Shown here: positions 8,584 to 58,094 of the stretch, in pieces | How positions within the stretch are numbered: position 1 is the first letter of the stretch | How the letters are laid out: each line of letters opens with the position of its first letter | Assembly (NCBI GenBank): GCA_963826785.1 | Contig: CAWGYD010000001.1 | Location: 256,001 to 320,000 of the forward strand | Reading direction: 5' to 3' | Origin: an uncultured delta proteobacterium | GTDB lineage: Bacteria; Desulfobacterota; Desulfobacteria; Desulfobacterales; Desulfosalsimonadaceae | Length of the DNA stretch: 64,000 bases | Notes under the pieces: model-generated | Seen by the model: the letters and a program-made list of their open reading frames with translations, nothing else | Told to the model about the DNA's origin: nothing | Databases searched by the model: none | Made by a program: the position numbers and the translations under genes

Positions 8584-10294
8584 TTATTGGGGGTAATTTT
8601 GTGACTGATGCGCTTTTCCGTGGCATTTTAGAAAACATTGCCCCCGGAAGCGGCCGAGATCATTATATTCAAGCCGTCCCGTGTCATCGGGCATGACGAT
8701 GGTCCGATCAAAATTGATGAGATGGCTGTTGCGGATGGAATTTCCCTGCATGTAATTGATGCCGTGGGGATCATGACAGGCCGAACAGGGCGTCTTTTGA
8801 TCCACCACATGCGTCTTGTGCGGGAAGCTTTCATCATTCAGCAGGGTCGCCCGGCTGTGGCAAGTATAGCACAGGGCGTAGCTGGAGGGGGACTCTATCG
8901 TGTAATCATCGGTGACATACCGGTCGGTGAGCAGATGCGGCCAGTCCGATCCGTGGGGTCCCTTGGGTGCGGAGGGATCGCTGCTGCCATGACAGTCCGA
9001 GCAGGTGATGGTGCTGCTGACGGTATAGGGCGGCAGCAGGCTTAACACATCCGGGTTTTTTCCCCGGACTTCCACCGGGTGAAAGGAAGGATTGGCCGGA
9101 TCAAATTCCAGCCGGGTGTTGACCTGATCAATCTGCCGGGCAACGTTTAGCGTATCGACGACATTGTTGTCGCCGTGGCATTTGAAGCAGATTTCATATT
9201 CATAGCGGGCTTCGGGCAGCATCTGGCCGGCCCCGGACATGCCCGATGCCCCCCGGGTCGCCCCCGATACCCGGGAGCCGTCCATGGACGGATCGGCGTT
9301 TGCCTGGTGGGGATCGTGGCAGTCGCTGCATTCAACATGTTTTTGGACGCCCCCCGATGCGAAATTTTCGCCCGGATCGTGAACGCCCGTATAGGCATCC
9401 ACGGGATGCCGGTACCGCTTGGTGATGACCGACGCGATATCGGTGGCGGCCACCTTGCCGTCATGGCAGGCAAGGCAGTTGTCCTCTTCATACACGAAGC
9501 GCAGCAGCCGCTCGATTTTCTCCTGCAGAATGGGGCCGGTGGCAATTTTCACATCCGTTTTCGGCGACGGTCACGTAGTCGGTATTCGGCCAGAGCGTAC
9601 CGGACCGGTCCAGTACCGCAGGGGAGCGTGAATGGGAAGAGGCGTTCCAGCCCTTTTCGTCATGGCAGGTAATGCACAGGGATGATCCCGTATTGTCCAT
9701 CACCAGAAACTGGCCGAACGTGTCATCATGGGGGTCATGGCAGGTGATGCACTGCAGCACGCGATTATTTTCGAGCCGGATTTCCCGGGGGAGCGTGGAC
9801 GGATCCCTGATCTCCCGGTTCTCCAGGGAAAGTCCGGTATCGTAGACAAATGAAACCGGATGGTCATCGGACAGGTCCGTGCCCAGTCCCGAGGGCCGCT
9901 GCTCGGGCAGATACCGGATGCCGCCCCGAAAAGGGATCTCGGTTTCCCCCGCAGCGGTCGCGCCAAGCGCAATGGTGCCGTCGTGGCAGCTCAGGCACAT
10001 CCGGGAAGATCCGGTGGGCTGCCCCACGTCGGCGGTGAGGGTGGAACTGTAATAGGGGGTATAATGGCTTTCATTGACGCTGCGGTTCCACAGATACGGC
10101 ATGTTCGAGCCTTCCCGGTGGGGAATGTGGCAGAAAATGCATATCCTCTCTTCCGATGAAGCGGTAATGGCGCCGGGGCCGCTGATGGACAGGTTGTGCC
10201 GGGTCGCGCGTATGTTTCCGCCCAGGGCGGACGTGGATAAACAGCACAGGAACAGGGCGAGGCCCGCAAGTTTTTTGTTTTTCATCCGTTTCAT
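8584..10294 (-). CDS. ~12-heme cytochrome c with an OmcE-like N-terminal tetraheme domain (indel near 9515)
   Basis: Signal peptide; CIFCH, CLSCH, CITCH, CITCH, CENCH | CLACH, CSDCH, CFKCH, CSDCH, CYTCH, CSACH, CFLKCH. The two ORFs join at HSAGEN/ERLL. Confidence 0.85.
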
Positions 10295-11328
10295 TTCAGG
10301 GCATCTTCTTTCAGGTATTTAAATACCTGGATCCGTTTATTGCTTGAATCCGACACGTAGATATAATCATTTTGATCGATGTAGATCCCGGTGGGAAGCC
10401 AGAATTCTCCGCTCCCCGAGCCGTGGTTGCCAAAGGCCATCAGCAGGCGGCCCTTCGGGTCAAACATCTGGACATTGTCGAAGAGCGCATCCACCACATA
10501 GAGATTGCCGTCGCTGTCGGCTGCCACACCCTTGGGCCTGGCAAAGGTCCCGGGCGCATCGCCCATCCGGCCAAAGGCGGTTTGAAACGCGCCTGTGCGG
10601 GAAAACACCTGGACCCGGGCATTTAGCGAGTCGGACACGATAATGTCGCCGGTGGGTGATGTGCATATGTGGGTGGGATAGTGCAGCCGGCCGTTTTGCG
10701 ACCCGCTGCCGCCAAATGATCCTTTCGGGGAAAGGGTTTTCAGGTCGTATCTGAATACCCGGGAAAGAAGCGTGTCCACCACGAGCAGTTCCGATGTCTG
10801 CTTATTGACGGCAATCCCGGTGGGCCGTTTGAACACATCGCGGCCCAGCTCCGCAACGAATGTGTCCCCGCGGTCCTTGAATATCCTGACCACGGCATCT
10901 TTCGAGTCGGTGACGTAGATCCGCCCCCCGTCATCTATGGCAATATCCACCGGGGAGGCCGGCAACGACTGTGCCGGGGAGAAGGAAGAATAGCGGTTCC
11001 CCTTTGCATCGAACACATGGACCTTCTTCAGGAAGGTATCGACAACATAAAGCCTGCCGTCGGCGTCGGATGACACGCCATAGGGGGAAACAATGGATGC
11101 CCCCGGTCTGCCGCCGATATAATCGACCAGTTTTTTAAACACCCCGGGTGCGATCCCGGCATCTTCCGGTCCGGATATGGTGTCAACAAATTCGATGCGC
11201 TTTGTCTCCGGCGGTTTCGGCCAGAAGAGATCCGCCCGCGGGCGCAGAGGTTCCGCGTGCTTGACGCATCCGGCCGCAACTGCCCATATGATCAGTGCCG
11301 CCGCGAATATAGGGATCATCCTGCGCAT
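10291..11328 (-). CDS. NHL-repeat six-bladed beta-propeller lipoprotein
   Basis: Lipobox AAGC; repeated P.G.A.D..G.LYV.D..N.RVQVF blades; ATGA overlap with the next gene. Confidence 0.9.
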   Translation of the reverse strand: MRRMIPIFAAALIIWAVAAGCVKHAEPLRPRADLFWPKPPETKRIEFVDTISGPEDAGIAPGVFKKLVDYIGGRPGASIVSPYGVSSDADGRLYVVDTFLKKVHVFDAKGNRYSSFSPAQSLPASPVDIAIDDGGRIYVTDSKDAVVRIFKDRGDTFVAELGRDVFKRPTGIAVNKQTSELLVVDTLLSRVFRYDLKTLSPKGSFGGSGSQNGRLHYPTHICTSPTGDIIVSDSLNARVQVFSRTGAFQTAFGRMGDAPGTFARPKGVAADSDGNLYVVDALFDNVQMFDPKGRLLMAFGNHGSGSGEFWLPTGIYIDQNDYIYVSDSSNKRIQVFKYLKEDALK

Positions 11329-11335
11329 GACCGGG

Positions 11336-13306
11336 CTACCACAGGCTCCGGGTGATGCCCAGGTAAATCCGCTGCTGCCGGTAGCTGTCCCCATTTTTCT
11401 TGTCCTCCTGATTGCCCAGCCGGTAGGAGAGGGTCCCTGTCCAGACCCCGTACGCCAGTTGGACGGTCGGGGCGATTTCCGTGTATACCATATCCTGATG
11501 GTCTCCGGAAACCCTGTCCCACAGACCCACCATGCTGAAAGTGCACCACCATCTGGGCGTCCAGCCGATGTTGGTCCCCAGGCTGTAAAAATCTTCCGAT
11601 TCATCGATGTCCGGAAAATCTCTGTTTCCGTAATCTCCGGAAAAATTGAAATAAAAATTTCGCAGGGGCCTGAAGTTGATGAGTTGGCGAACGCTCCGGG
11701 TGATGATGGAATTGCCGTTGCTCCGGTCCTGATCCTCATAGAAAAACTGGGTCTCCGTCCAGTCGGTGTCGAACCGGATGCGGACACTGTTGCGGGTATC
11801 ATCAATGGGATCATACAGCGATTCACCGGATATCACGTTCTGGTTGAGACGGCCGTGCGCCAGGGTGAGATAGAAAAACGACCACAGATCCAGATCGAAA
11901 CGGTAGTCCTGGCCGAAGCGGGCATCGTCCACCGAGGCATCGATCCGGTAGCTGTAGCGGATGAGCACCTCCTGACCGTCGGCGATGGAGCCCAGCAGGG
12001 AGCGGCTGATGCTCACATCGGGCCCGATCTCCTGGATCCGGTAATCGATATTTTCAGCGTAGACGGTGGCGCCGGTAATGCTGGTCACCAGGATGGATTG
12101 GCGCAAAATGTTTTCTTCCCGCAGCAGCGTTTCCTCACCGATTTTCAATACATGGGGCTCCTGGGTCGAAATGATGTCCTGGTCGCCGCTTCGTTGGGTG
12201 AGATCATAGGTGTACCCCGCGCCCAGCTCCACGTTTCCCCAGGGGATCGGCCGATTGTAGGTAAAGCCCAGGTTGCTGCGGTACAGGTCTTCGCTTCCGC
12301 CGGAAAAATCGGTAAATGCCGCCTCCCCGCCAAGATCCGTGGTCAGGCGGTCATACAGGCGATGGGTCAAACCGGCCCTCAGTGCGGTTTCCTCGTTTAC
12401 GAAGCTGTCGAAGTCGTTCCGGTTGTAATTGATGCTGTACCGGGTCAGCAGGCTTCTGCTGTGGGTCCAGAAAAGATTCTCCGAAGCCGACCAGATATCA
12501 CTGTCCGCATCGGCGTATTCGGCCCGGTTGTTGTAAAAAAGCGAGTCGAGTCTGACCCTGTTGTCATCCGTAAAAAAGAGGGTGTTGGTCAGTTCCGTGT
12601 TCAGGGCATTGGATGAAATATCGGTGCTGTCATACAGTGTCCGGGTGGTTCGGTCCGCGTCGTCGTAAAGCATTTCGAGCTGGGTAACGCTGTTTCCCGC
12701 ATTGTGACGGACATCGACCTGCAGTTCATTGCGATCTTCATCCCACCCGTAAAATCCGCTCTGGGAGGATTTCTGACTGCTGAATCCGATGGAGGCCGGC
12801 AGCGTGGGGTTGGTGAAATTCAGCCGGGTGCCCCAGGTTTCATTATCGAAATCCGTATCCTGGACGGTCGACAGATCGAGCCGGCGGGTGTTACGGTAGG
12901 CAAAGAAATCCATGGAGAACGGTTTGCGCTTCAGCAGCGTCGCCCGCGCGTCATAGGCCATAACCGATGTGTCCCTCCGCTCTGTATGGGATTGTTCAAA
13001 TATTTCCTGGCGCCACTCGGGCATGAAGGTAAAGCGGTATTCCATCAGGTTGGGATGATAAAGCCAGCCACCGGTGCGGATGGTTGCAGTCTCCAGAAAG
13101 TCATGGGTGGTGGTCTTTGTTTCCGCCTCCGGCGTTTTTAGCGTTTCATCCTCAAATTCATAGGAAGTGCCAAGCCCCAGCTTGGGCCGCTCCATGAAAA
13201 AAAATCCATTCTCCTGCGCATGGGCTGAAGTCGCCGCCGTCATCAGGGCGGCACATGACAGCATAAACAGGATCATATGGGTTACTCTATTGCGGGAAAA
13301 CATCAT
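11336..13306 (-). CDS. Large outer-membrane beta-barrel (porin/secretion channel of the cytochrome cluster)
   Basis: Signal peptide ending AHA; alternating-polarity strands rich in Y/F/D/N/T; C-terminal beta-signal YLGITRSLW; no heme motif. Confidence 0.8.
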   Translation of the reverse strand: MMFSRNRVTHMILFMLSCAALMTAATSAHAQENGFFFMERPKLGLGTSYEFEDETLKTPEAETKTTTHDFLETATIRTGGWLYHPNLMEYRFTFMPEWRQEIFEQSHTERRDTSVMAYDARATLLKRKPFSMDFFAYRNTRRLDLSTVQDTDFDNETWGTRLNFTNPTLPASIGFSSQKSSQSGFYGWDEDRNELQVDVRHNAGNSVTQLEMLYDDADRTTRTLYDSTDISSNALNTELTNTLFFTDDNRVRLDSLFYNNRAEYADADSDIWSASENLFWTHSRSLLTRYSINYNRNDFDSFVNEETALRAGLTHRLYDRLTTDLGGEAAFTDFSGGSEDLYRSNLGFTYNRPIPWGNVELGAGYTYDLTQRSGDQDIISTQEPHVLKIGEETLLREENILRQSILVTSITGATVYAENIDYRIQEIGPDVSISRSLLGSIADGQEVLIRYSYRIDASVDDARFGQDYRFDLDLWSFFYLTLAHGRLNQNVISGESLYDPIDDTRNSVRIRFDTDWTETQFFYEDQDRSNGNSIITRSVRQLINFRPLRNFYFNFSGDYGNRDFPDIDESEDFYSLGTNIGWTPRWWCTFSMVGLWDRVSGDHQDMVYTEIAPTVQLAYGVWTGTLSYRLGNQEDKKNGDSYRQQRIYLGITRSLW

Positions 13307-13380
13307 CGGTTCATTTATCGCCCATGGTCTTTCAGCTTCTCACGAGATGGAAACTGCGGGTTCATCGAAATTCAAGCCGG

Positions 13381-14121
13381 CTACTCAGTCTTTTTGCAAT
13401 CCACGGGGGACAAATTTTCACCACTCGGGTCCGGCTTCAAAAAAGCCGTATGTTTTTCTTCCATGTAGTCTTTCTTCAACATAAACCGGTCTTTCCCCAG
13501 GTGGACATTGTGGCACGACAGGCACGGTTTGGGTTGATCTGCATCCTTGATGCATTTTGCAGCGCCGATTTTATTGCCTTCATTGTGGCAGCTGACGCAC
13601 AAGCGGTCCGGATCGTCATTGAGCCGAAAAGGGTACCGGCTCTGATGGGCCGCGTGGCACGCCAGGCATTTTCCCTCGGCTGAAAGCTTTTGCAGATACA
13701 GCCCCCTTTGGATCGCCCACTCGGGGGACAGGTCCTTGTGACAGGTTTGGCAGAGCTTTTGGGCCGGGGCCACCAGGGGGCCCGGCTTTCCCCCGCCGCT
13801 TCTGAAAATGCCGTCCCAGCTGTTCCCGAAAATGGGGGTGGAAAAGGCGGAGGCCCCTTCATGGCAGGCCGCGCATTTTCTTCCGATATAAGGTTTGTGA
13901 GAAACCAGGGGGCGCTCGAGCACCCCGGCGTCGGCGGTCTGCACGACCGTAGATGCCGGGGTTTGGGCTTCCAGGGGCTTGGGTTTTTCGGCGGAAATTT
14001 CCTCTTCAGGAAACAGGAAGCGAAAGGCCGCACTTTCAGGATGCTTCTGGCACCCTGGCGTCAGAAACATCAAGACGCCCGTAAAAACAGCGAGGGCAAA
14101 AATGCTTATCTGCTTATCCAT
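13381..14121 (-). CDS. Pentaheme cytochrome c lipoprotein (paired CXXCH type)
   Basis: Lipobox TPGC; CAACH, CQTCH, CLACH, CVSCH, CLSCH; immediately upstream of the barrel. Confidence 0.85.
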   Translation of the reverse strand: MDKQISIFALAVFTGVLMFLTPGCQKHPESAAFRFLFPEEEISAEKPKPLEAQTPASTVVQTADAGVLERPLVSHKPYIGRKCAACHEGASAFSTPIFGNSWDGIFRSGGGKPGPLVAPAQKLCQTCHKDLSPEWAIQRGLYLQKLSAEGKCLACHAAHQSRYPFRLNDDPDRLCVSCHNEGNKIGAAKCIKDADQPKPCLSCHNVHLGKDRFMLKKDYMEEKHTAFLKPDPSGENLSPVDCKKTE

Positions 14122-14194
14122 AAGACTCCAGTAAAATCCGTTTTCTCGCCGGAACAGCGTGCGGGTCGCAAGATATTTTCAAGTCGTCGGACCA

Positions 14195-15271
14195 TCACCG
14201 CCCTATGCTCTGGTTTTCCGGGAGCGTATCGCCGACCCATTTTCCGAATCCATAGACATTGAGTTTGCTGGATCCGAACATGCTGGTGACATAAACGAGG
14301 TACTCGATTTTAAAATTCGGGGAGGCAAATTTGGAAAAATAGCCGACATTGGCGTAATCGATGGCGATGCCGGCAGGAAGATACAGGCTGCCCGGGGCGC
14401 TGCCGGAGCCGCCGAAAAAGAGCAGCAGCCGGCTCTGATCATCAAAGATCTGCACGTTCTCAAAGGCGGCATCCACCGCATAGAGATTGTTCGCTTTATC
14501 CACCGCCAGCCCTTTGGGCCGCGCAAAACCGCCGATCTGGTCGCCGTGGAACCCGATGGTCCGGCGCAGATCACCGTCGGGGGAGAGCACCTTGACACGG
14601 AAGTTGAAGGCGTCGTTGACAAAGACCTCGCCGCCCGGCCCCACGGTGAGGTGGGAGGGTTTGAAAAAATCCCCTTTTTTCCCCACGGCCCTGATCAGGC
14701 CGCCGGTGTCCTTATCCAGGATGAACAGCTGCTCTTTATCGATATCGATCACATACACCCGGTTTCCATGCACCGCCACATCCACCGGCTTTTCAAATAT
14801 CTCCGCATTGCCGTAGGCCCTCAGAAATTCGTTGTTCCGGTTAAAGACCACCACCTGTTTTCGCTGCATGTCCGCAACGTATTTGAGGTCGTCATCTGAA
14901 ATCCAGATGCCGGAAGGATTGCCCAGGCTTCCCATTCCGCTGTCATCGATGAAGGAAAGGGTCTGATCCGCCAGATCAAGCACCACGATTTTTCGGTAGA
15001 CCCGGTCCAGGACGTAAATTTTGCCCTTTGAAGACCCCACATCATAGGGCCGCCCCAGTTTTTCATTGTCGGGTTTGCCCAGGATGAACTCCTGAAGGGC
15101 ACTTTGCTTTTTGCCCAGGTCGTGGGCGTCCGTTATGGAATGGAGAAACTGCAGCCGCGGTTCCTGGGGCAGCGGCGGGTAGTATATAGGATTTTGATGC
15201 ATCCCCTCCCTGGGCACGGAGGCGCACCCGATGAAGACGATAAACAGTGAAAACAGGAAGATCTTTTTCAT
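14195..15271 (-). CDS. NHL-repeat beta-propeller lipoprotein
   Basis: Lipobox FIGC; YYPP.P..PR.QFL N-terminal motif; FARPKGLAVD..NLYAVDA blades. Confidence 0.9.
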   Translation of the reverse strand: MKKIFLFSLFIVFIGCASVPREGMHQNPIYYPPLPQEPRLQFLHSITDAHDLGKKQSALQEFILGKPDNEKLGRPYDVGSSKGKIYVLDRVYRKIVVLDLADQTLSFIDDSGMGSLGNPSGIWISDDDLKYVADMQRKQVVVFNRNNEFLRAYGNAEIFEKPVDVAVHGNRVYVIDIDKEQLFILDKDTGGLIRAVGKKGDFFKPSHLTVGPGGEVFVNDAFNFRVKVLSPDGDLRRTIGFHGDQIGGFARPKGLAVDKANNLYAVDAAFENVQIFDDQSRLLLFFGGSGSAPGSLYLPAGIAIDYANVGYFSKFASPNFKIEYLVYVTSMFGSSKLNVYGFGKWVGDTLPENQSIGR

Positions 15272-15288
15272 TTTGCAGGGCGGATCCT

Positions 15289-15948
15289 TTATTTGTCGTG
15301 ACAGGTCAGGCAAAGGGCCGACCCTGTATTGTCCTTGATCAGCAGTTTGGTTCCCGGGACCGCCCGGGTGTTGTGAACGTCATGGCAGGATGAACATTCC
15401 ATCCGGCTTTGAAAAAGCATATCGTCATGAATGGTCCCGCTGCTGCCGACCAGGCCCGAAAGCTTGGCCAGCGGGTCGTAAAGCTCACCGTCCTGGGTGG
15501 CCAGAGAGGTGTCATAAACAAATGAAATGGGATGATCATTGCTCAGGTCGGTGCCGATCAGGACATCTCCGAACAGATAAACGGTCCCGTTTCGGATATC
15601 GCCGAAATTTTCCAGGGCCACGGTCCCGTCATGGCAGGAGAGGCAGATTTTGGAAAGCCCGTCCGGCTGACTGCTGACATTCGCATCCATGGTGGGGGAG
15701 CGGGTGCTGTTATACATGGTGTAGACCTCCGTGGACAGTTCATGATTCCACAGCGGGGCCGGAAGGGGTTTGGTGTGATGGGGCGTGTGGCAGGGCTTGC
15801 AGATTTCCCCGCTTTCGTTCCACAGATACCCGCGAAAGTCATGGGCGGATCCGACGATGGTCCCCGCCAGTGCGACAGACGAACAGACGAGCAGCAGAGA
15901 CAGTATGGCCGCCGGTATTTTTCTCTTCATCTTCAACTTTATCCGCAT
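15289..15948 (-). CDS. omcE: OmcE-like tetraheme cytochrome c (candidate nanowire subunit)
   Basis: RBS AGAGGA; Sec signal ending ALA; motif series HD..., ICKPCHTPH, PLWN, CLSCHDG, GTDLSNDHP, ECSSCHDVH, GSALCLTCHDK-stop matches my recollection of Geobacter OmcE. Confidence 0.8.
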   Translation of the reverse strand: MRIKLKMKRKIPAAILSLLLVCSSVALAGTIVGSAHDFRGYLWNESGEICKPCHTPHHTKPLPAPLWNHELSTEVYTMYNSTRSPTMDANVSSQPDGLSKICLSCHDGTVALENFGDIRNGTVYLFGDVLIGTDLSNDHPISFVYDTSLATQDGELYDPLAKLSGLVGSSGTIHDDMLFQSRMECSSCHDVHNTRAVPGTKLLIKDNTGSALCLTCHDK

Positions 15949-16099
15949 GTTTGATCCTCTATGATTATTGTTCGTTTCCATCAACTTTGCTGGTGAATGC
16001 TTTATCTTCGTTCCTGGCGGAAAAATGAGATTTTAGTGCAAGACAGGCCAAAAAAAGGCAATCCCGGGCTAAAAGATGCGTTTTTCGCCTATGCACGAT

Positions 16100-17101
16100 T
16101 TACATTTGGTGACATTCCTTGCACAGGTTTTCCGGCAGCCGATGCCGGTATTTGCTGTCCGCCCCCTTGGCCCCGGGCCGATCCTCCGGGATGACCCCTT
16201 TCTGGTGGGGGTTGTGGCAGGTGATGCAGGTCATCTCGCCCTTTTCATCCAATGGGAGCCTGACCTGATATTTTTCCTCCATGTGTTGAATCCGCTTCAT
16301 TCCATCCGGGGAGGGCTTGATGCCCATGTGATCGGCATTTCCGGAATGGTTCCCGGCAATCCGGTGGCACCGGCGGCACATGGTTTCGATATTGCCGATG
16401 AACTTGACGTCCTTGAAGGTCGCATGCTTTTCGTCGGGTTTCTCTTCGTGGCAGATCAGGCAGTTTTGAATGATGATCTCGCCGTTCTCATCGATCTGGT
16501 GATGGGGGTCGAGCTTCTGGTAGTTTTGTTCGGCATGGCATTTATAGCAAAAATCCGTCCGCCTGGGATAAGGGGCGCCGCGCAGGGAATTGCGGTCAAA
16601 CAGCCGCTTTTCGCACTGCAGGAAAACGTTGTGGCAGGTGTTGCAGGTGAGCCGTCCCTCCTGCAGCGGAAAATCGGCCGGCATCCGTTTTTTCTTTTCG
16701 GGCGACGGCGCGATGTCGAAGGGGTGGATGTACTCGGCCGGGGCTTCGGCATGACAGCGGCATAACCGTCCATAATCGGCCTCGAACTTGAGCCAGGGCT
16801 GTCCGCTCCCCTTGACGGGCGTGGTTTCATGGCATTCGCTGCAATATTGTCCGGTGTAATGGATATTGGTGGCGGCCGTGACGCCTTCGTTTACAAACGT
16901 GAAGTCAGGGGCAAAGCGGGGCGCTTCTGCCGCCGCCGTCTCCGGCGATGGGCCAACGTCCGCATCTTCATGATAACTTTGCGTCGAAACGGATTGGCAG
17001 GACACCATCATCAGGCAGAAGGCCAGGGTGATGAGGCGCGTTCTCTTGAACATGCCCAGGAGACGGCATCTGTGGTTATGCAAATACGCTTTTTCTGTCA
17101 T
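16100..17101 (-). CDS. Octaheme cytochrome c, probable lipoprotein (7 CXXCH + 1 CXCH); paralog of 33701-34594
   Basis: MMVSC lipobox; CSECH, CRCH, CNTCH, CYKCH, CLICH, CRRCH, CITCH, CKECH. Confidence 0.9.
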   Translation of the reverse strand: MTEKAYLHNHRCRLLGMFKRTRLITLAFCLMMVSCQSVSTQSYHEDADVGPSPETAAAEAPRFAPDFTFVNEGVTAATNIHYTGQYCSECHETTPVKGSGQPWLKFEADYGRLCRCHAEAPAEYIHPFDIAPSPEKKKRMPADFPLQEGRLTCNTCHNVFLQCEKRLFDRNSLRGAPYPRRTDFCYKCHAEQNYQKLDPHHQIDENGEIIIQNCLICHEEKPDEKHATFKDVKFIGNIETMCRRCHRIAGNHSGNADHMGIKPSPDGMKRIQHMEEKYQVRLPLDEKGEMTCITCHNPHQKGVIPEDRPGAKGADSKYRHRLPENLCKECHQM

Positions 17102-19593
17102 CGGCTGCGTTGGTCGTCGGCTTGTGAAAATATTTGAATTTATACAGCGCCTCGACCCCGTGGCAATCCTTGCACACCCGGTCGGCCAGGTGGGGCCTCA
17201 GGAAACTGTTGACGGCATCGCCTTCTGCGGGAAGGGCTTGCGCCGGCCCTCCCGTGGAATTTGCGGTCCAGCGATGCGCATCGTGGCACGTCGGGCACGA
17301 AATATTGCCCGCCTTTACGTGTTTAGCCGTGTTCTTGTCAAATAAGGGGAACACGGGCGGCATCCGTTTGACCCGATGTCCACGGGTTGACCACGATGGT
17401 GTCGGGATGGGGGATACCTGGGGGACTTTTCTGGCTGCCGCACCCGTTTTGGAATGGCAGGAATTGCACATCCGGTCCATCATATTTTCCCCTTCCCCCA
17501 GGTCCCGGGCCCACAGCTTGATCCCCACCGTGCCGTTATGGACGAGGTGGCACGCACCGCATACCCCGGATTCAAATGGGGTTCTGCCGGCGGCATTCCT
17601 GGCCTCGGGCGCGGTTTCGATCAGGTTGTGATCCGTCTTCTGGACTTCGGCCTGATCCTTGTGGCAGCCGATGCACAAATCAGGCGGATGGGCTGATCCG
17701 GCGGCGCAGAAACCGGGTCACCGGCCGTCCGTCAACAGATACTAAATCGCCGTCTTTTCGGGTGACGGGAGACCCGCGATGGGGATCATGGCAGGTGTGG
17801 CAGGTCATGATCCCGTTTTCCAGCAGGCGGCCGTCTTCATCAAAGAGCGGCAGTCCCGTTTGGGCCATGCCTTCCGGAAGGCGGACATTGACCGGGTGCG
17901 AGTTTTTCTCAATGGCCATCTTGGGCGCAAGCCCGTCCTTTTCATGGCAGCCGGTACATCCGTCGTTTACGAGTTCGCCCGATGCCGTGGCCGTTTTTCG
18001 GCGCCAGATAAATCCGTCCGGCCCGGCGGCATGGATGCGGTGGCAATTCCGGCACAGGTCCGATTCGGAAACGTTTTGCCGCAAAATCGGGCTGCCCTCC
18101 GGAAAAACGCGGCCAAGGTCATGCCGGGTATTTTCGATAGCAAATTTTTCCGCATGGCACGTTTGGCAGATCTCCGGCGACGGCTTTCGCAGCAAAGGAT
18201 TTTTGGGGGCAGATTCCCCGTTTGCCGTCGCCGGGGGTGCCTGCTGGATTCCGGTGCCGCCGCCATGGGCGTCATGGCAGGTGGCGCAGGTCATTTTGCC
18301 CTGGGGGTCGACCACCCCGAGCGCATTGAACAGGGGCAGATCGATTACCTTTTTTTCCATGGCCACCGGGGGTTGCAGCCCGCCTCCGGTGCTGTCCGCC
18401 GGTTCAGGAAGGCCCATGCCCACCGGATGGGTGTAGCCGGCAAGATTTTTGTTTTCGGCAAACTTTCCCCTGGCGTGGCAGCTCAGGCACATGGCCGTGG
18501 TCCGATCGGCTCCGTCCGGGTTTTCATAGGGCGTTCGGGCCGCCTTGTGCGGCAGGTGGCAGGCGGAGCATGCGCCGGATTCTGCAACGGTTTTTCCTTC
18601 CAGGTTCTTTTGCGTCCTGGCCGAGAGCGCCAGGTTGTGGCGGGTCTTTTCCAGGCGCTGTTTGTCCGGATGGCAGGTCAGGCACAGACTTGATTTGAAA
18701 TTTTCTTCAATCAGCAGCGCCGCTTGTTTTTTAATCGGGTTGTTATGGATCTTATGGCAGGTCTGACAGGTCAGCATGCCTTCATATCCCAGTTTTGCCC
18801 CTTTTTTTTGCAGCGCATCCGGTATGACCGCTTTTCCGGGTTTGACGTTGATGACGTGGCCGGCGTTTCGCTTGCCTGAATCGGTGAACATGTTCTTGTC
18901 CGTGTGACACTCCAGGCAAAGGCCGCTGTCGCCGGCCCCCTTCACCAGGTACCCCTCGCTTTTCGCGCCATGGGCGGTATGGCAGGTTTCACAGATGACC
19001 TGATTTTTTTGACTCCCCTCGTGGGCGCCGCGCATCTTCAGGTTCTGCGGAATCTTTTTTTCGCTTTTGGAAAGGGAGTGATTGCCCGCATCCGTGCCGC
19101 CGTCTTTATCGGGGTGGCACTTTTTGCACATGGCCGAATCAATGTTCGACATGCGCAGAAAAATGGTTTCCTTCACCCCGGGCCCGCTCTCCACACCATG
19201 GGCGGTGTGGCAGGTGGCGCACTGAATTTTTCCGTTTTCATCCAGGGGAAAACCCTCCGGTATGATCATGCCCGCCGGCGGTTTCACCCCGGTTTTGTGC
19301 GCCTTGCCGTACATCACCCGGTCCCGGGAATCCACCACGCTGCCGTCATGGCAGGACATGCACATTTCCGGGTCCGCGGCCACCTTTTCCGACTGATATG
19401 GGACCAGGTCGGTTCCTCTTCCTTCCACAAAGAAGGTATCGATCCACCGGTAGTGGCATATGGCGCATCCTTTTGCCGAATTCGGGTTCTTGGGCGGCTC
19501 CACGGTGGCCGCAAACAGGCTGCCGGCCAGTATCTGAAACATGAATAGAAAATGGATATACAAGATGCGTCGGCGACGCCGGTTTCGTATCAT
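17076..19593 (-). CDS. Giant ~20-heme periplasmic cytochrome c (indel near 17686)
   Basis: 15 CXXCH in 17680-19593 plus 5 in 17076-17678. Removing one C restores SPSPDLCIGCH, as in the paralog. ATGA overlap with the upstream NHL gene. Confidence 0.9.
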
Positions 19594-20591
19594 TTGCCTG
19601 CTTCAATCCGGTAGACGCTGACTTTCTGCGCTGCCATTTCGACCACGTACAAGCGATTGTGATCGTCAATGTATATGCCCGTCGGCGTCTTGAATCGTTG
19701 AATCGCCTCACCGGCGCCATCTCCGAGAACACCCCGGAATTCCCCCCAGGTGTCGAATACCTGGATCACGCCCATGTAGCTGTCGCTCACGTAAATCCGG
19801 TTGGCCGTATCCACGGCAACACCCTTGGGCCGGAAGAATTGGCCTTTTTCAACGCCCCAGCCGCCGATGGCGGTGACAAACAGGCCGTCGGGATTGATCA
19901 CCTGCACGCGCGTGTTGATGACGTCGACGATGTAGACGTATTGTTCCTGGTTGAGGGCGATGAAAAAAGGATACCTGAACATCAGGTCCTGTTCTCCAGG
20001 CTCTCCCACGGTGTTGGTGAGTTTCAGGGTGGAAAGGTCGTAGACCAGAAAATGGTGGTGATCGTTGTCCACCACGTACAGCCGGTTTCGGGACTCATCG
20101 ACTGCGACATCGGTGGGGTCCGCCGGCCTGCCGTTTTTGGGGGAAAGCGTGATCATGGCGGTAAAAACATGATTCTTGTCAAAAATCTGCACCCGGTGGT
20201 TGCCCGAGTCGGCAATGTAGATGTTTCCGGCATTGTCCACGTCGATGCCGAGCGGATAGCGAAACTGCCCCTTGCCGTCTCCGGGTTCCCCAAAGGCGGT
20301 GAGCGCCTTTCCGTCAGGTTTGAATACCTTGATTTTGCTGTTTACGCCGTCGACGACATAGATTTTACCGTCCTTTGACACCGCCACATCGCTGGGTTCT
20401 TTAAAATCGCAGGTGATGGCAAACTCAAAATCGATATTGACGATCTCCACGGCCAATGCGGGTCGTGCCGGCACAGCAGCGAAAAACAGCAGTTGCAAAA
20501 CGACTGAAATGCCGAAGGTTAAAAAGCTCCGACCTTTTTTGATCCATGTCACCAGGTCGAATTGAAGGTGATGCGTATCGGTTTTCTGCAT
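19590..20591 (-). CDS. NHL-repeat beta-propeller protein (exported)
   Basis: Signal-like stretch ending ALA; blades such as FRYPLGIDVD..GNIYIADSGNHRVQIF. Confidence 0.9.
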   Translation of the reverse strand: MQKTDTHHLQFDLVTWIKKGRSFLTFGISVVLQLLFFAAVPARPALAVEIVNIDFEFAITCDFKEPSDVAVSKDGKIYVVDGVNSKIKVFKPDGKALTAFGEPGDGKGQFRYPLGIDVDNAGNIYIADSGNHRVQIFDKNHVFTAMITLSPKNGRPADPTDVAVDESRNRLYVVDNDHHHFLVYDLSTLKLTNTVGEPGEQDLMFRYPFFIALNQEQYVYIVDVINTRVQVINPDGLFVTAIGGWGVEKGQFFRPKGVAVDTANRIYVSDSYMGVIQVFDTWGEFRGVLGDGAGEAIQRFKTPTGIYIDDHNRLYVVEMAAQKVSVYRIEAGK

Positions 20592-20615: not shown

Positions 20616-21557
20616 TTAATCCACTGGTGAAAGCAGGTGCGGCAAGTAAAAGACCTTGTATTTGGTCACGAGCCCCTTGATGTTCAATGATTTGAGATCA
20701 TGGGCCCTTTTTTCTGAAAAGCCGAGCTGATGAAAATCGAGGATGCTGTCTTTTGAATGGCACTCCCCGCAGGTAACGCTGATTTCACTCTTGTGGATAT
20801 CCTGATGGAAGCCGCTCAATCGCTTTTTCTTTTCATCGGCGCTCAGCGTCTTTTCTTCTGCCGTGTATGCCTTTGCCTTATCGGTATCCCAGGTGTTTAC
20901 CAGTGATTTTCGCCTGCCGTTCTCATTTGAAAAAACACAGATGCGCGAAATGAAATGAGAAGATTTGGCGTCATTTCCGATTTTCGGGTTAAACCGCGCT
21001 CCAAAAGGCTCTCCCGCAAATTCGGCGGTTTCCGAGCTGGTCCAGTCATACTGAAGCGATTGAAATTTTTCCCTGTTGATGTGGCAGGTTTCACAGGTCA
21101 TAAACCCAATGTGCATGTTGATGAATGCCCTTGCCAGCTCATTGCTCTGGTGCGGGTACAGGCGGTGGCATTCCCGGCAGGAAGAGCCGTCCGCCAGTTG
21201 GGTGATATATGATTTTTCTTTATCATGGATCGTCTTTAAATCAAAATCGGCGATGCGCTTTTTGTCTTTTTCCGCCAGGTGGCACCCATTGGTGCAGTTG
21301 ACCGCTGTCTGCCCGGCATGGGGAACCTTTGTCACCGTCGTGTGGCATTTTACGCAGTCTGTCTTGCCGTGGGGCGACTGACGGTATCGGTTTTCATCAA
21401 TGTGGAACACCTTGAATCCCGCCGGATCCTCCGGCCGGACCAGCCCGGGGTACTGGTGGCAGGTGAGACATCCGCTTTCATCCATGGCAAAGCTGTTTTT
21501 GACACCGGGCATCAGCATCAGCATCGATATCAACGCAGTGAAAAGATATTTGGTCAT
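20616..21557 (-). CDS. Soluble hexaheme cytochrome c (octaheme-N/triheme hybrid)
   Basis: Signal peptide ending SFA; CLTCH, CVKCH, CTNGCH, CRECH, CETCH, CGECH; no C-terminal TM. Confidence 0.85.
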   Translation of the reverse strand: MTKYLFTALISMLMLMPGVKNSFAMDESGCLTCHQYPGLVRPEDPAGFKVFHIDENRYRQSPHGKTDCVKCHTTVTKVPHAGQTAVNCTNGCHLAEKDKKRIADFDLKTIHDKEKSYITQLADGSSCRECHRLYPHQSNELARAFINMHIGFMTCETCHINREKFQSLQYDWTSSETAEFAGEPFGARFNPKIGNDAKSSHFISRICVFSNENGRRKSLVNTWDTDKAKAYTAEEKTLSADEKKKRLSGFHQDIHKSEISVTCGECHSKDSILDFHQLGFSEKRAHDLKSLNIKGLVTKYKVFYLPHLLSPVD

Positions 21558-21580
21558 GTGAATTCCTTCATACCGGCAAA

Positions 21581-22432
21581 TCAGTCCTTGCTGAAATCGA
21601 GCACCGACGGCAGGTAGAACGTTTTGTACTTATCGATCATGCCGACAAATTCGCTCGAAACCAGGTGCTCCACCCGCCTTTCGGGGAACCCGAGCTTTTT
21701 GAAATCGAGATAACCGTTCTTCTGGTGGCAATCCGCGCAGAATACCGGTTTTTTGGAAAGCGGTCCGTGAAGCTTGGCTTTGGCTTCGGCCACCTGGTCA
21801 GATGTCAGGTCAGGCCGCATTTTCAGAAACTGCTGGGCCGCCTCCGTCTTGATCGGTGTAAATATCCGCGAAGGACCCTGTTTAGTGAACTTGATGGGAT
21901 AAATTTTGGCGGGGTATTTGCCGTATTCCCCTTTTACGGTATTTTCAATTTCTCCGGTCTTTCGGTCCACCCACAAAAAATCGATTTTCTCCTTCTGGGA
22001 TCCGTCCAACTCCGTCCCGGCGTTTTCATCCTGGCGGGCGTGGCATACGGCACAGGCGATAAAACCGGTGTGCAGGTTCAGCAGGGCGCGGACCTTTTTC
22101 TCCTTGCCGTGGGGATAAGTCCCGTGGCAAACCACGCAAATCGGCGGATTGGGCTCCTGGTGGTCCACATACTGGTCGATCATGTGGAAATGTTCCCGGG
22201 GTGTCGATTCGCTTTTATGGGTGACGAGCTTGAGCATATCCGCATCGCCATTGTATTTTGAAAGAACGACCGATGCATTCAAGCCAAAGCCGGGAAAATA
22301 GACGACACTGATCAGCCATAGCCCGAAGATAAAAAAGGGAAGGAGATAGACGACCTTCAGGAAAAACAGAAGAATGCCCCTGACCCTGTGAAAGGCGCTG
22401 CCCAAAAGAGAAGATCCTTTTTTTTCAATCAT
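21581..22432 (-). CDS. Membrane-anchored triheme cytochrome c (module 3)
   Basis: N-terminal TM; HFHM, CVVCH, LHTGFIACAVCH, CADCH; C-terminal KY.TFYLP. Confidence 0.85.
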   Translation of the reverse strand: MIEKKGSSLLGSAFHRVRGILLFFLKVVYLLPFFIFGLWLISVVYFPGFGLNASVVLSKYNGDADMLKLVTHKSESTPREHFHMIDQYVDHQEPNPPICVVCHGTYPHGKEKKVRALLNLHTGFIACAVCHARQDENAGTELDGSQKEKIDFLWVDRKTGEIENTVKGEYGKYPAKIYPIKFTKQGPSRIFTPIKTEAAQQFLKMRPDLTSDQVAEAKAKLHGPLSKKPVFCADCHQKNGYLDFKKLGFPERRVEHLVSSEFVGMIDKYKTFYLPSVLDFSKD

Positions 22433-23184
22433 TTTGTTTCCGATCCCTCCCGCAGGTAAATTTTCTGGAGCTCCGGGTCGCTCATGATTTTGTCATAATG
22501 AAGGCGGTACTCTTCTTTCATTTCTTCCTCATCGATGAGTCCGGTCAGCCACATGTTGTCAATGGGAAACTTGTGCGGCCGCAGGTGAATCTCATATAAA
22601 TGCCAGACCATCACCGCCAGGCAGGCCAGTATGGCTTCCATCCCGTGCACCAGGGAAGCGATGTCGACGAAAAATTTGTCCCAGGCGGATTCAGACCATA
22701 ACATCAGGCCGGTAACAGACATCAACGTGGTGCCGACAATCAGGGCCATGTATTCCGCTTTGTGCTTGTAGGAGAACCGGTCAAATGCCGGCGGCTGATC
22801 TTTAAACCCGATCAGGTACGCCATATTGTGTAAAAATTCTTTCATATCGCGCGGCCGGGGCATCATGTCCTTGAACCAGCGCCGTCCGGCCGGCTTGAAG
22901 ATCAGATAATAGATGTGGTAGGTGCTCACGATGATCATGAGGGTGCCGAAGACGCGGTGCACCACCCCCCGGGCAATAAAAACGGGCTCCTTTGCGCTTC
23001 CGAGAAAGTGAAACGCCTGCTCGGGGAGCCAGACCATGAAACCGGTGAAGGCCAGCATGAAAAAGCAGACCACAAATATCAGGTGCTGTACTTTTTCGCT
23101 GGAATTCAGCCGGACAAAATACCGGGAAACGCCGGAAGGCTTATTCTCCCATTGGATATCGCTGTGACTAATGTTGCGGGTCAT
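22429..23184 (-). CDS. Di-heme cytochrome b (FdnI/CbcB-like; module 3)
   Basis: 4 TM with conserved His: KVQH, VHR, YH, VHGMEA, WHLYEIH; FDRFSYKHKAEY loop. Confidence 0.9.
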   Translation of the reverse strand: MTRNISHSDIQWENKPSGVSRYFVRLNSSEKVQHLIFVVCFFMLAFTGFMVWLPEQAFHFLGSAKEPVFIARGVVHRVFGTLMIIVSTYHIYYLIFKPAGRRWFKDMMPRPRDMKEFLHNMAYLIGFKDQPPAFDRFSYKHKAEYMALIVGTTLMSVTGLMLWSESAWDKFFVDIASLVHGMEAILACLAVMVWHLYEIHLRPHKFPIDNMWLTGLIDEEEMKEEYRLHYDKIMSDPELQKIYLREGSETK

Positions 23185-24457
23185 GCATCGCCTCTTTTTT
23201 CATTTTCTTGCGGGCGCGCCGGAAATCCAGCAGCTGGTGGACAAACATGAAGCCGATCACCGCCGCAATGAGTATCTGGTATACCATTTTGATCATCGAC
23301 AGGACCTTGTAATGGAATACCTCTTTTTCTGAAATTTCCTTGCGGGCCCGAACCAGGATGAGCGGTTCCTCCGCAGCTTCCTCGACCTGTATCGCCTCCT
23401 GGCTGGCCATGAGCTGGACCTTGGTCCCGTAGGCATGGACCCGGCCTTCGGCGAAGTTTGCCGTCGCACCGGGATGACAGTTCTGGATGCCCCCCTGGTT
23501 GCTGCATGTTCTGACCCGGTTTTCTTTGTGGATGGGTGAAACAGTGTCGGTTCGGGGCTGGATCTCGTGAGTGGTGTACCCCACCGGTACATGGCAGGTG
23601 ATGCAGTCGGGCGCGTTTTTGACGTCGTATTTCACCAGCGCCCAGTGAAACGTGTCCTTGAAGGTCGATACCGCCTCAAGCCCATGCCGTTTCATCTTCT
23701 GCTCATCTTCGTGGCAGCTGGTGCATAAGCGTATGATTTCGTTCTGATCTCTTCGCCGTCGCATGCGATGGGTGAAATGGGCGTAAATGGTTTGGGTCCA
23801 TTCTTTATCCGTATGGCAGCCCTGGCAGCGGGCCAGCGTTTCCATGGACAATTCCTCGCTTTTGCCCCAGAACCCGGCATAGGGGTTATACGACCGGTTG
23901 CCGTGGCAATAGGTGCATGTGGGCCGGTCCTCGGGAAACTGCTTTTCGCCGTCTGCGCCTTGTCCGTGAACGCTGTGCTGATACTTTTCCACCATGTTCT
24001 TGTGGGAAAATTCCCGGTTGGAGGAGGGGTCCTTGATATGGCACTGGGTGGAGCAATCGACTTTTTTCACCTCTTCATGCGGGATTTTATCCAGATCCGT
24101 GTGACAGCTTTTGCATTTGAGCTTTCCGTGAACGGAATGGGCAAACAGCTGGTCATTGATGTAATAGACCCTTTTCGTCCCGTTTTCGTCATAGCGCCCC
24201 AGGCCGGGGTATCGATGGCAGATCAGGCAGTTCTCCTGATCCGAGGCCGCATCGGACTGGGTAAGACCCGGTGCGGCAAAGAAGATGACGATGACAGCCG
24301 ATAGCACCGCCATTTCAAAGATCCGGCGGGTCTTGAATCCTGCCGATTTCCTTTTGCTGCCTTGCCTCATAGAACCTGACTTTCGTTTTAAACCATTTGG
24401 GGGATGCATGATGTTGATTTCGCCGAACCTATTTTCCCGTAATACCGGCCGCCTCAT
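23168..24457 (-). CDS. Octaheme cytochrome c with C-terminal TM anchor (module 3; start uncertain, alternatives 24409 or 24370)
   Basis: CLICH, CKSCH, CSTQCH, CTYCH, CQGCH, CTSCH, CITCH, CSNQGGIQNCH; C-terminal hydrophobic helix. Confidence 0.85.
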   Translation of the reverse strand: MRRPVLRENRFGEINIMHPPNGLKRKSGSMRQGSKRKSAGFKTRRIFEMAVLSAVIVIFFAAPGLTQSDAASDQENCLICHRYPGLGRYDENGTKRVYYINDQLFAHSVHGKLKCKSCHTDLDKIPHEEVKKVDCSTQCHIKDPSSNREFSHKNMVEKYQHSVHGQGADGEKQFPEDRPTCTYCHGNRSYNPYAGFWGKSEELSMETLARCQGCHTDKEWTQTIYAHFTHRMRRRRDQNEIIRLCTSCHEDEQKMKRHGLEAVSTFKDTFHWALVKYDVKNAPDCITCHVPVGYTTHEIQPRTDTVSPIHKENRVRTCSNQGGIQNCHPGATANFAEGRVHAYGTKVQLMASQEAIQVEEAAEEPLILVRARKEISEKEVFHYKVLSMIKMVYQILIAAVIGFMFVHQLLDFRRARKKMKKEAMHDPQH

Positions 24458-25313
24458 CTTCGCTCATCCCGGGATGCAGCATCCGCGGGACGTGGAATTT
24501 GGTATAGTCCCTGATCATTCCGACAACTTCCGTGCTGACCAGCATATCGGTCCTTTTTTTGGAATAGCCCAGGGCTTCGAAGGGCAGCAGCGGGTCCTGT
24601 TTGCGGTGGCAGTCCTCACAGAGATACGGCTTTTCGTTGATGAATTTGTGAATGATCTTCTTGGCCTTGGACTTCTGGCGCTCGGACAGGGTTTTTTCCG
24701 TTTTCTGGTATTCTTTTGCAAATTCGATCCGGTCCGGGTTGTCCATCCGTTGGATTTTGCCATCGACCCGTTCAAAAGGGATGATTTTCGCGTGGTATCT
24801 TCCCGGGGCCACGCCTTCCTTGATGGGGCTTTCGATGATCTGACCGGTTTTTCGGTCGTACCATTTAAAGACGCCGGTTTTCTGGTCGCCCTCCAGCCGG
24901 ACATGGCATGTCTCGCAGGAGATGAAAGCCGAATGCATATTCCCGAAGGCCCGTATTTCCTTCTTTTCGTCATGGGGGATATCGCCGTGGCACTCCACGC
25001 AGGATGAACGGTTATCGGGGGCCATGTCATAATCGATGTGATGGAAATGACCCTTGATCTTCATCTCCTCCAGAACCCGGTACCCCAGGTAGTGCTTCAC
25101 CTTGTCATCGCTTTCCAGGATGATCTTTTTAAAGGACTGGGCCTCTTTTTTTTCTTCGAGCCGGGCCGTCAGTGAATCGGTCTGATCGAGCACTTCCCGC
25201 TCATGGTATTCTTCGAAAAGATGACCGAAAGTGATATTCCAGATCACGACCATGAAGAACACGGTCATGGCCATGAACGCCAGTATGTACACTTTGAATA
25301 AAAAATTTTTCAT
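24429..25313 (-). CDS. Membrane-anchored triheme cytochrome c (module 2)
   Basis: N-terminal TM; GHFHH, CVECH, MHSAFISCETCH, CEDCH. Confidence 0.85.
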   Translation of the reverse strand: MKNFLFKVYILAFMAMTVFFMVVIWNITFGHLFEEYHEREVLDQTDSLTARLEEKKEAQSFKKIILESDDKVKHYLGYRVLEEMKIKGHFHHIDYDMAPDNRSSCVECHGDIPHDEKKEIRAFGNMHSAFISCETCHVRLEGDQKTGVFKWYDRKTGQIIESPIKEGVAPGRYHAKIIPFERVDGKIQRMDNPDRIEFAKEYQKTEKTLSERQKSKAKKIIHKFINEKPYLCEDCHRKQDPLLPFEALGYSKKRTDMLVSTEVVGMIRDYTKFHVPRMLHPGMSEDEAAGITGK

Positions 25314-25328
25314 TAAATGCCCCTGTTT

Positions 25329-26150: not shown

Positions 26151-26153
26151 GGC

Positions 26154-27206: not shown

Positions 27207-27274
27207 TTTGAGAATCTGCTTGCCCTCCTCGTTTAGATGATCCGACCCATCGCGCCATGCGCTCCAAAAGCCTT

Positions 27275-29856
27275 CTATTCCGGCCGCCTGCCCTCGAGCA
27301 TCTCTCTTTTGGCAGGCGAGTGAAAGTACGTGTAGCGCCAGATGGCGGTTTCGCCATGACAGTCGATGCAGACCGCCTTGTCGCTGGATGTCCGCAGAAA
27401 ACTGGTGTCGGCATTACCCTCGGTGTTTTTGCCCGGGCCTTTTTGCCTGACCCGGTGGTCCCACATGAAGAAAGAATGGCAGGAAGAACATGACAGATCG
27501 CCGACATGGCTTTCTTTCCAGCCGCTGTCAAACAGCTTGATATGATTCGCGGGCAGGGCATGGGAGCGCATGATGTTATTCATGAGCTGTCCGGGCGGAT
27601 GTTCCGCCACCGCCGGGATCTTTTTTTCCGCGATTTGCCCTTTGGAATGGCAGCCCGTACACAGGCCGTTCATGGGATGCTGATGTTCACCTGAAGGGCC
27701 ATAAGCCCTGGCCCACAGCAGATGTTTTTTATCACTGTGATGGGCGGCATGGCACGCCCCGCACGGTCCAGATTCGGCCACCGTCTGCCCCTGCTGATTT
27801 GTCGCGGCGGGCGCGGTCACGAACAGGTCGTGGTCGGTTCCGGTCAGAAGTGCGGTATCTTCGTGGCAGACCACGCAAAGGTCCGGGGAAGGGGAGGCCG
27901 GTTTTCTCAGGAAACTGGTTTTCGCATTCCCCTCAATGTTTTTGACCGCTGAACCCTCTGCCGGTGAGGGCCGCGCAGGCATTGCCGTCTTCGGGTTTCC
28001 GGACGACCAGATATGGGGATCATGGCAGGTGCGGCACCTGATGATGTCGCCGTTTTCTCTGCCGCCCTCCGGGTTGAACAGGGGCAGCAGTCCACTGACG
28101 CTTGCGGACGGCGGGATTTGCGGCCCCTTAGAGACGACATCGACCGGATGATCGTTTTCTCCCGCCCGTTTTTCTTTTGCCGGGCCATTTTGGGAGTGGC
28201 ACCCGGTGCAGTATGGCCGGGCGGATTTATTTCCATCGGGGAGATTCCGGGCCCACAGGGTTTTATCCAGGGCGTTGTGCGGGATATGGCACGCGCCGCA
28301 GGGCCCGGCGACTTGCGCGGTAAAGCCCTGGATGTTGGTCGCCTCCGGTGCGGTCAATGCCAGGTTGTGATCAAATGACAGCAGCTGCTCTTTATCCCGG
28401 TGGCATGAAACGCACAGCGCCGATGTCTTGCTGGCGGATATCCTTAAAAAACTGTTGGCGGCGTCTCCTTCGGCGTCTTTTCCGCCCCTGACGGTCCGGT
28501 GCGGCCGGATCCCATTGATGAAGGTTGTGGCAGGTGGCGCACTGGACCGTGCCGCCGGCCCGGGGGTGGCCGTCTTTGGCAAAAACCGGAAGTTTATCCG
28601 TGAGCCCGGGCCGGGAAGGTTTCGGGTCCGTTTTTGAAACCGGACCCATATCGATGGGGTGGGAATATTTGCCGATGCCCTTGATCTTGTCTGTTTTTGT
28701 TTCACCGTGGCAGGACAGGCAGGTCCGGGAGGCCGGGTTGCCGGGCCCGAGCTTCCGGGCCCAGAGCCGGTATCCGGCCGAATTGTGGGGGATATGGCAG
28801 GCCCCGCACGGCCCGGATTCGGACAGCGGCTGTCCTTTCAGATTGGTTTCTTCGGGCAGGGTCATCCTCAGGTCATGCTGGGTTTTTACGATGCTTCGTT
28901 CCTTGTGGCAGGTCATGCAGAGCTGTGAATCGCGGTTATCCATCAGGGTTAAATTGCGTCCTTTCGCCCCGTGGACCCGGTGGCAGGTCTGGCAGGTGAC
29001 CGTATCTTTTTTTTCTGCTTCGACGGCCCCCAGCGCAAACAGCCTGTCCGGGATCTTGAGTTTATCCGTGTGCACCGGGTGGCTGTGGGTGCGCGTAAAG
29101 TCGGCTTCATTCACATGGCAGGTCTCGCACAGCCCGGAATCGATATTGCCGAGGCGAAGAAAGGACATGGGGCCGGGTATGGCTTCCTCGAGGGGGGTTG
29201 AAGGCTTTGCCGTTTCCCCGCTGTGCGGCGAATGGCACGTACCGCAGTAGATTTCGTCCTTGTTGCTCAAGGTCAGCGCATCCGGGATCTTCACATTCTC
29301 GGATGGCTTTTTGAAGGTGGTGTGGTTGTTTCCTTTCCACACCACATGGCGCGAATCGAGAACATAGCCGTCATGGCAGCTGTAACAGATCTCTTCGGAG
29401 CTGACGATCCCCTGGGTGTCTTTCATCAAGACATTTCCCGGCTGAAATTCGATCAACGTCTCCCGGTTGGTTCTAAACACATCCAGCCACATGACATGGC
29501 ACATGGCGCATTCTTTTTTAGACGATTTTTCAAGTGCGGCCAAAGCGGGCGGTGCAGCTGACCAGAATGAGCATGCATACAACGGAAAAGATATGGAGGC
29601 CGGGGCGGCCCGACACCCCCCTAAAGCCCCCCTCGAGGGGGGAATGGGGATGGGCTTGCCCCCCAAGCGGAGAAAGCTTTAAAAATTCCCCTATGATTGG
29701 AGAAATCTTTTTGAACCCGCTTTTGAGCGGGGAAATCTTCTTGAATCCCCCTTTGAGGGGGGAATTAAAGGGGGGTGTCCCCCCGGATGGATAAAAGCCC
29801 CCCCCAATGTGAGCTGCCTTCTCAGCTATGGTGCGACAGTGTAAAAAGTGTTTCAT
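27275..29856 (-). CDS. Giant ~18-heme periplasmic cytochrome c (indels near 29562 and 28487)
   Basis: 9 CXXCH in 28392-29666 plus 9 in 27275-28705. ATG at 29856 overlaps the NHL stop (ATGA). Signal peptide LHIFSVVCMLILSAAPPALA is restored after one indel. Confidence 0.85.
29612..29779. repeat. Palindromic REP-like element with five 30-bp units, read in frame within the cytochrome N-terminus
   Basis: Termini GACACCCCCCT and AGGGGGGTGTC are inverted; units start at 29621, 29651, 29681, 29711 and 29741 and translate SPLKGGFKKI-like decapeptides. Confidence 0.75.
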
Positions 29857-32597: not shown

Positions 32598-32604
32598 TTT
32601 TTCA

Positions 32605-33678: not shown

Positions 33679-33700
33679 TGGTTCAGTTCCCTCGCTTGAA

Positions 33701-56316: not shown

Positions 56317-56371
56317 ATCATATTCCCGATTGGACGCCCGCTGCCGGAAGGCTGCCGCATGGGGATCAATT

Positions 56372-57793: not shown

Positions 57794-58094
57794 GGTGGGT
57801 AGTCCCCTTCGCTGCTGCCGGAGTTTCTGCAAAATAATGTCCATCATCTTAACCGGTACGATAACAATCGATTATTGGGGGATCCATCTATTTTAGGTGC
57901 GGAACAGACAGTATTTTGATCATACCGCACATGGCAAATGACTACTGTATATGCCGAATTCCCCGGCCGTGCGGGCTCCCCCCGGTTTGTATTTCCATTT
58001 GATGAGATTATAATTCTAAAGTGGTTTTCGCGTAAGACAGGGTCTTTGGGCCCGTTATTCATAAAAGGACATAAATCAGAATGAGGAGCTTCAG

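Follow-up and report, generated by a model that had tools for sequence, protein, structure and literature searches.

Can a polymerising cytochrome filament be written into a single gene? This question is raised by a gene for a 20-heme c-type cytochrome on the minus strand of a 64,000-nucleotide (nt) stretch of DNA (the window) from an uncultured delta proteobacterium (Desulfosalsimonadaceae; GCA_963826785.1, CAWGYD010000001.1:256,001-320,000, forward strand). In this protein an eight-heme head is followed, in one chain, by three four-heme units with the heme and histidine order of OmcE and by an extra terminal His. We consider it somewhat probable that it works as a capped wire, relaying electrons through the periplasm from a cytochrome b module. 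This proposal draws on the repeat, the ligand count, the length series of the family and the gene neighbourhood, all of which are direct observations, and on the predicted OmcE-like fold of each unit. The architecture, OmcE-like units in variable copy number within one chain that is probably a capped wire, is real and conserved.

The repeat is far beyond chance. The 20 CxxCH motifs run along the minus strand from 19467 to 17174, with the first eight at 19467-18684, those of unit 1 at 18570/18489/18288/18168, those of unit 2 at 18054/17958/17802/17675 and those of unit 3 at 17561/17468/17297/17174. A sequence-only reading had named the twelve motifs behind the eight-heme part, and all twelve lie on this strand where it placed them. 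Its interval for the feature, 17076..18645, has to be extended, as the gene starts at 19593. Its motif pattern holds with two amendments: (L/I)W, assigned to every unit, is absent from unit 1, and the HP of unit 3 is coded but falls out of the frame of open reading frame (ORF) B, in a short stretch at ~17358-17412. The three units of the window share 27-37% pairwise identity, and with Cys and His masked HHalign gave 99.9% for all three against a unit profile, which includes close relatives of these units. Moreover, the offsets of the distal His after each CxxCH are constant in 81-82 of the 82 listed 20-heme homologues and in all 32 listed 24-heme homologues: at odd-numbered hemes except the first the His comes three residues after CxxCH, and at even-numbered hemes, including the last, 11-17 residues after.

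Is the unit that of OmcE? The OmcE proteins of Geobacter sulfurreducens (7TFS) and Desulfuromonas soudanensis (9YUQ) arrange their four CxxCH and four distal His in the order seen here, as the sequence-only reading had proposed; this match stands, with the HP of unit 3 out of frame in the window. The flanking motifs TxHDL, LW, HP, LPL, FLR and LC align with the units, and the predicted unit fold superposes end to end on OmcE (heme-free models). Only OmcE-like proteins align across the whole unit, and in a structure search with the predicted fold of a single unit 7TFS scored well above MtrA. The OmcE subunit is longer, however (~200 amino acids, versus ~160-170 here), and its monomers are free to polymerise and end at heme 4, whereas the units described here are covalently fused behind a head. 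The 20-heme protein is also likely periplasmic and non-polymerising, and across the compared loci it goes with a cytochrome b module where OmcE goes with a barrel.

Superposition on OmcE by HHalign and structure, which the same reading had put forward as the check, thus gave a divided answer: the whole-unit alignment and the end-to-end fold match are on one side, while on the other the match between unit and OmcE-like proteins is lost when Cys and His are masked, and controls score nearly as high over half a unit. Shuffles that preserve the motifs keep the OmcE likeness, with a median z of 3.2 for the unit (25/61 sequences) and 3.0 for its first half (20/61). The lost match and the high controls would suit a generic linear chain of two-heme paired-CXXCH blocks, in which the resemblance to OmcE comes from shared small blocks and not from a fused filament with its interface. 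The second half of the unit is indeed closer to 7- and 14-heme families, lone second-half blocks occur in the head and within giant members, MtrA came out on top in the full-length search, and in a tree of units a long branch (1.44) of unsure placement leads to the OmcE-like rows. A mere chain of pairs nevertheless remains unlikely to us: the first half is OmcE-specific and is almost always followed by a second half, and the whole-unit alignment and the single-unit structure search single out OmcE as described above.

If the units are fused filament subunits, how does the chain end? In OmcE filaments, one heme per subunit takes a His from the neighbouring subunit (PMC9473688, PMC12954529), and the ligand count of the units fits one heme ligated by the His of the neighbouring unit. 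The 20 hemes have 19 distal His, because heme 1 has a Trp where the other odd hemes have His. This Trp is invariant in 83 aligned homologues, and among 24 proteins from the compared loci the position holds W in 21 and F in 2, with one protein clipped before heme 1. At the other end, the terminal His is found in 82/82 of the listed 20-heme homologues, 32/32 of the 24-heme ones and 24/24 locus proteins. It has been argued that an OmcE terminator needs four hemes and nine His, a combination proposed yet not found in omcE clusters (PMC13712944). The last unit has precisely four hemes and nine His, and OmcE-like monomers stop 2 residues past the last CxxCH (61/61); the tail His probably caps the chain, and one heme of the first pair would be left without a His. 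In OmcS, the His that crosses the interface is presumably the one three residues after heme 1, the position of Trp here; the capping argument is independent of this.

The same ligand pattern could also mark an anchor or terminator for the OmcE filament encoded next door, as an omcE-type cluster adjoins the gene in the window and in the syntenic locus L056 of genome G019. We regard this role as very improbable. An OmcE-like gene (E ≤ 1e-20) occurs in just 6 of 22 family-positive genomes (this assembly, G000, excluded; drafts can miss genes), compared with 34 of 378 others, kin among these genomes not being independent. No family member was found in 34 of the 40 OmcE-positive genomes, a free OmcE gene together with a barrel was present in 1 of 20 loci (each ≤20 kb), and the last unit turns its spare His towards a covalently attached unit.

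Where would such a wire lie, and how far would it reach? A hydrophobic N-terminal stretch is present in 109/111 homologues; a lipobox-like motif was found in 0/114 and no membrane helix in the mature part. The 20-heme protein would thus be soluble and exported, most simply to the periplasm. OmcE rises 34 Å per subunit (PMC12954529) and its D. soudanensis homologue 30.8 Å; at these rises three units would span 9-10 nm and, with a head of equal pitch, the full set of 20 hemes 15-17 nm. Published widths of the periplasm are 170 Å (PMC11492766) and ~235 Å (PMC12806980). The idea of a covalent OmcE-like segment spanning the periplasm is supported in part: the three units alone would be too short, but the whole 20-heme protein could nearly bridge the gap.

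The protein belongs to a series of graded lengths. A protein search gave 533 matches at E ≤ 1e-20 among 8000 candidates, and among the best 120 of these, which were characterised, 82 carry 20 hemes and 32 carry 24, with other numbers in the remaining six; the source names of the matches include Desulfobacterales and Nitrospirae. The family is present in 3 of 41 near relatives (G000 included) and 23 of 401 genomes of the phylum. Comparison of 20 loci, drawn from 18 genomes with six other positive genomes set aside, gave 24 members carrying 16 (four proteins), 18 (three), 20 (seven), 22, 28 (four), 31, 32, 37, 48 and 49 hemes. Labelling the first and second halves of the unit as A and B, these members follow the scheme head-(AB)n, with a lone B pair here and there. 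In a unit tree of 75 rows, from which 26 middle units had been dropped at random, 20 of 21 last units form one group (96/90) and first and middle units are intermixed. Some internal units are 75-89% identical. Since last units group apart and internal units can be near-identical, length shifts by internal duplication while both ends are kept.

Giant members were seen at L039:7033-13176, L040:7656-13928, L041:8042-12697 and L055:9014-11617, with 48, 49 and at least 37 hemes among them. L041 has a recently duplicated block with units 89% and 75% identical, and L055 has two near-identical units. Members with 48 hemes would need to slant, bend or leave the periplasm. This threefold variation in length with the same partners is unexpected for a bridge across a fixed gap, and would fit better a protein that serves chiefly to store electrons and has a curved or compact shape in the periplasm; indeed, single-chain heme wires like GSU1996 are crescent-shaped and have been proposed as capacitors (PMC10138318). 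Storage as the main function seems improbable, however, as the two ends are different and strictly conserved, and the gene lies between the membrane module and further cytochromes. In one homologue (P0007, 1093 amino acids, 27 hemes) the 20-heme protein is fused to the downstream 7-heme cytochrome, although this fusion could be an assembly effect, being the only member of its cluster.

Taken as a capped wire, the chain may work as follows. Neighbouring units would pack head to tail, one His per unit binding a heme of the unit after or before it, in the manner of OmcE subunits. The terminal His would occupy the site that a next filament subunit would otherwise take, and the Trp at heme 1 would remove the His at the opposite end; with this cap and this Trp the chain would not polymerise. 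The heme of the first pair without a His partner is the likely site where a partner protein makes contact. With 31-34 Å for every four hemes, the chain would reach a length of ~16 nm. Electrons might pass, in either direction, between the quinone-linked membrane module and the 7-heme cytochrome downstream, which in this genome may link on to the omcE cluster. We give about even chances to the wider claim, namely that this undescribed, widespread family of 16 to 49 hemes is an OmcE filament in one gene, in which His ligation between subunits and heme packing are kept, both sticky ends are closed (by Trp at the start and by a spare His at the end) and duplication within the gene sets the length.

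The window copy itself is broken. ORF A (637 amino acids) holds 15 hemes and ORF B (200 amino acids) five. The distance from heme 15 to heme 16 is 127 nt, compared with 42 codons in 78/82 intact listed 20-heme homologues, so that one extra base precedes heme 16; a second, compensated pair of slips surrounds the out-of-frame HP, giving three slips in total. The analysis of family, ligands, partners and length was based on intact homologues. Assembly error is the probable cause: all 20 CxxCH and 19 distal His codons are retained, each slip involves a single base and falls in or beside a short run of bases (judged by eye), and the orthologue is unbroken in G019 locus L056, as are homologues elsewhere. 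An essential leuS-like gene of the same assembly (G000:C8:16426-19024) is also split over two frames, one carrying the HIGH-like motif and the other KMSKS, and the assembly, in 11 contigs, is 87.8% complete. Whether the gene is truly dead in this strain, which would then make at most an uncapped 15-heme fragment, is a separate question. Five slips fall in three large cytochrome genes (~6.6 kb) versus none in ten other cluster genes compared with G019 (~11 kb), and six of six housekeeping families searched are intact, as true frameshifts would predict; we hold true decay to be doubtful. Two overlapping ORF pairs, 48529-50710 (-) and 59336-60656 (-), also look like frame-broken genes, by reading multiheme and radical-SAM-like.

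The features of the locus are collected in the table.

Table. Features of the 20-heme cytochrome gene and its surroundings (window positions).
Feature	Position	Strand	Remark
20-heme c-type cytochrome gene	17076..19593	-	ORF A 17680-19593 and ORF B 17076-17678
Likely Sec signal peptide	19510..19593	-	basic N-region, hydrophobic stretch, no lipobox; read from sequence
Eight-heme head	18670..19467	-	made up of four heme pairs, most of them generic second-half (B) pairs; not OmcE-like over its full length
Trp at heme 1	19444..19446	-	replaces the His three residues after CxxCH of other odd-numbered hemes
Four-heme unit 1 (hemes 9-12)	18148..18657	-	predicted fold matched to OmcE
Four-heme unit 2 (hemes 13-16)	17661..18141	-	one-base slip immediately ahead of heme 16, with a stop at 17680-17682
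Four-heme unit 3 (hemes 17-20)	17154..17648	-	HP in out-of-frame stretch
Extra His, Y/F-Y/F-H motif	17124..17126	-	12 residues after the last CxxCH; likely capping ligand
NHL six-bladed beta-propeller	19590..20591	-	overlaps the 20-heme start codon; NHL propeller in 18/20 loci
Membrane module: 6-heme cytochrome, cytochrome b (PF01292), 3-heme and 5-heme cytochromes	20616..24457	-	likely quinone-side partner
7-heme cytochrome	16100..17101	-	directly downstream; fused to the 20-heme protein in P0007
Free OmcE-like tetraheme cytochrome	15289..15984	-	7TFS E 8.6e-22, 9YUQ E 7.8e-19
Rest of omcE-type cluster	8584..15313	-	two NHL propellers, 5-heme cytochrome, 656-amino-acid gene, 11-heme cytochrome
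18-heme paralogue	27275..29666	-	three units behind a 6-heme head, with the same terminal His; broken by frame slips here and intact in G019

Cytochrome b was found in 17 of 20 loci, and the three loci without it end at contig ends. At 20616-33792 (-), three cytochrome b/3-heme/6-heme modules stand one after another, and after two of them come a propeller and a long wire gene; no NCBIfam family scored above cut-off for seven proteins of these modules. In seven loci (L048, L049, L050, L051, L052, L053 and L055) a 14- or 15-heme cytochrome comes directly after the wire gene, in the place of the 7-heme protein of the window. The layout of the omcE-type cluster is as described in PMC13712944, its 656-amino-acid gene, which has no family match, being the putative outer-membrane barrel. 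Its 11-heme cytochrome (8584-10294 (-); L056:578-2287), frame-broken here and whole in G019, starts with an OmcE-like domain whose match to the unit profile (52 bits, z 6-7) is better than that of the free OmcE-like gene; judged by its sequence, this protein is a second kind of OmcE-domain fusion. Further away, an OmcA/MtrC-family cytochrome with nine CxxCH lies at 51059-53392 (-) (TIGR03507, 383.5 bits, cut-off 209.3). Putative glycosyltransferase, radical-SAM and MMPL-like genes at 53864-63988 (-) resemble, by reading, a hopanoid cluster. As dsrA scored above cut-off at G000:C4:77971-80404, with a paralogous match alongside, the host is of sulfate-reducer type.

Among known systems, GSU1996, GSU0592 and GSU2210 of Geobacter likewise form a wire from one polypeptide of tandem heme domains; their type is built from c7-type three-heme domains with His/Met at one heme (PMC10138318), whereas here the unit has four hemes and ligand counts that are His-only. 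The period is four hemes, and TIGR04257, the c7-type domain, had no match at E ≤ 0.001 in the 20-heme protein. The protein has a GSU1996-like design and an OmcE-like module and is a member of neither family. MtrA/DmsE decahemes, grouped for comparison with Paired_CXXCH_1 cytochromes (PF09699, TIGR01905), have half as many hemes; the 20-heme protein scored 68.5 bits with TIGR03508, below the cut-off of 192.2, and has no barrel gene as conserved neighbour. PF09699 itself matched above its gathering score of 20.6 bits (ORF A 108.6, ORF B 27.4).

Large cytochromes beside propellers have been described for partners of ANME, and the 26-/16-heme operon of SEEP-SRB1 (OetABI conduit), also from Desulfobacterota, combines large multihemes with a beta-propeller and has been proposed to transfer electrons across the envelope (PMC5539420, PMC10553843). 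Going by these descriptions, it is set apart by a core with PPIase and porin, the conserved partner here being the cytochrome b module. Soares et al. 2024 (PMC11492766) describe uncharacterised periplasmic wires in Desulfuromonadia, long predicted single chains proposed to join both membranes; the available text describes neither an OmcE-like repeat nor a capping His, though its supplementary atlas of 41 clusters could hold a member. Such a repeat is likewise not described in the available parts of PMC12133095, PMC12545173 and bioRxiv 2023.06.12.544705, and the words 'tandem' and 'fused' are absent from PMC13712944. In literature searches that mostly do not cover subscription papers, no description of tandem OmcE-like units within a single chain came up.

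A single-chain periplasmic wire is as a general idea already established for GSU1996 and its kin, which limits the surprise. Nevertheless, the family seems to use the OmcE-like module in repeat mode and to carry the terminator pattern at its end. Two questions become testable: what makes some cytochromes polymerise and others repeat a module within a single chain (PMC11492766), and how an OmcE filament ends (PMC13712944). In a soluble series of 16-49 hemes, conductance and redox spread could be measured against length without filament heterogeneity. If the wider claim is true, nature would have provided soluble, uniform nanowires in graded lengths; the family would also show how to build a filament terminator and would connect giant multiheme cytochromes directly, in evolution, with nanowires that polymerise. 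The family is, besides, a candidate periplasmic link for bacteria of the sulfate-reducer type that carry electron-export genes.
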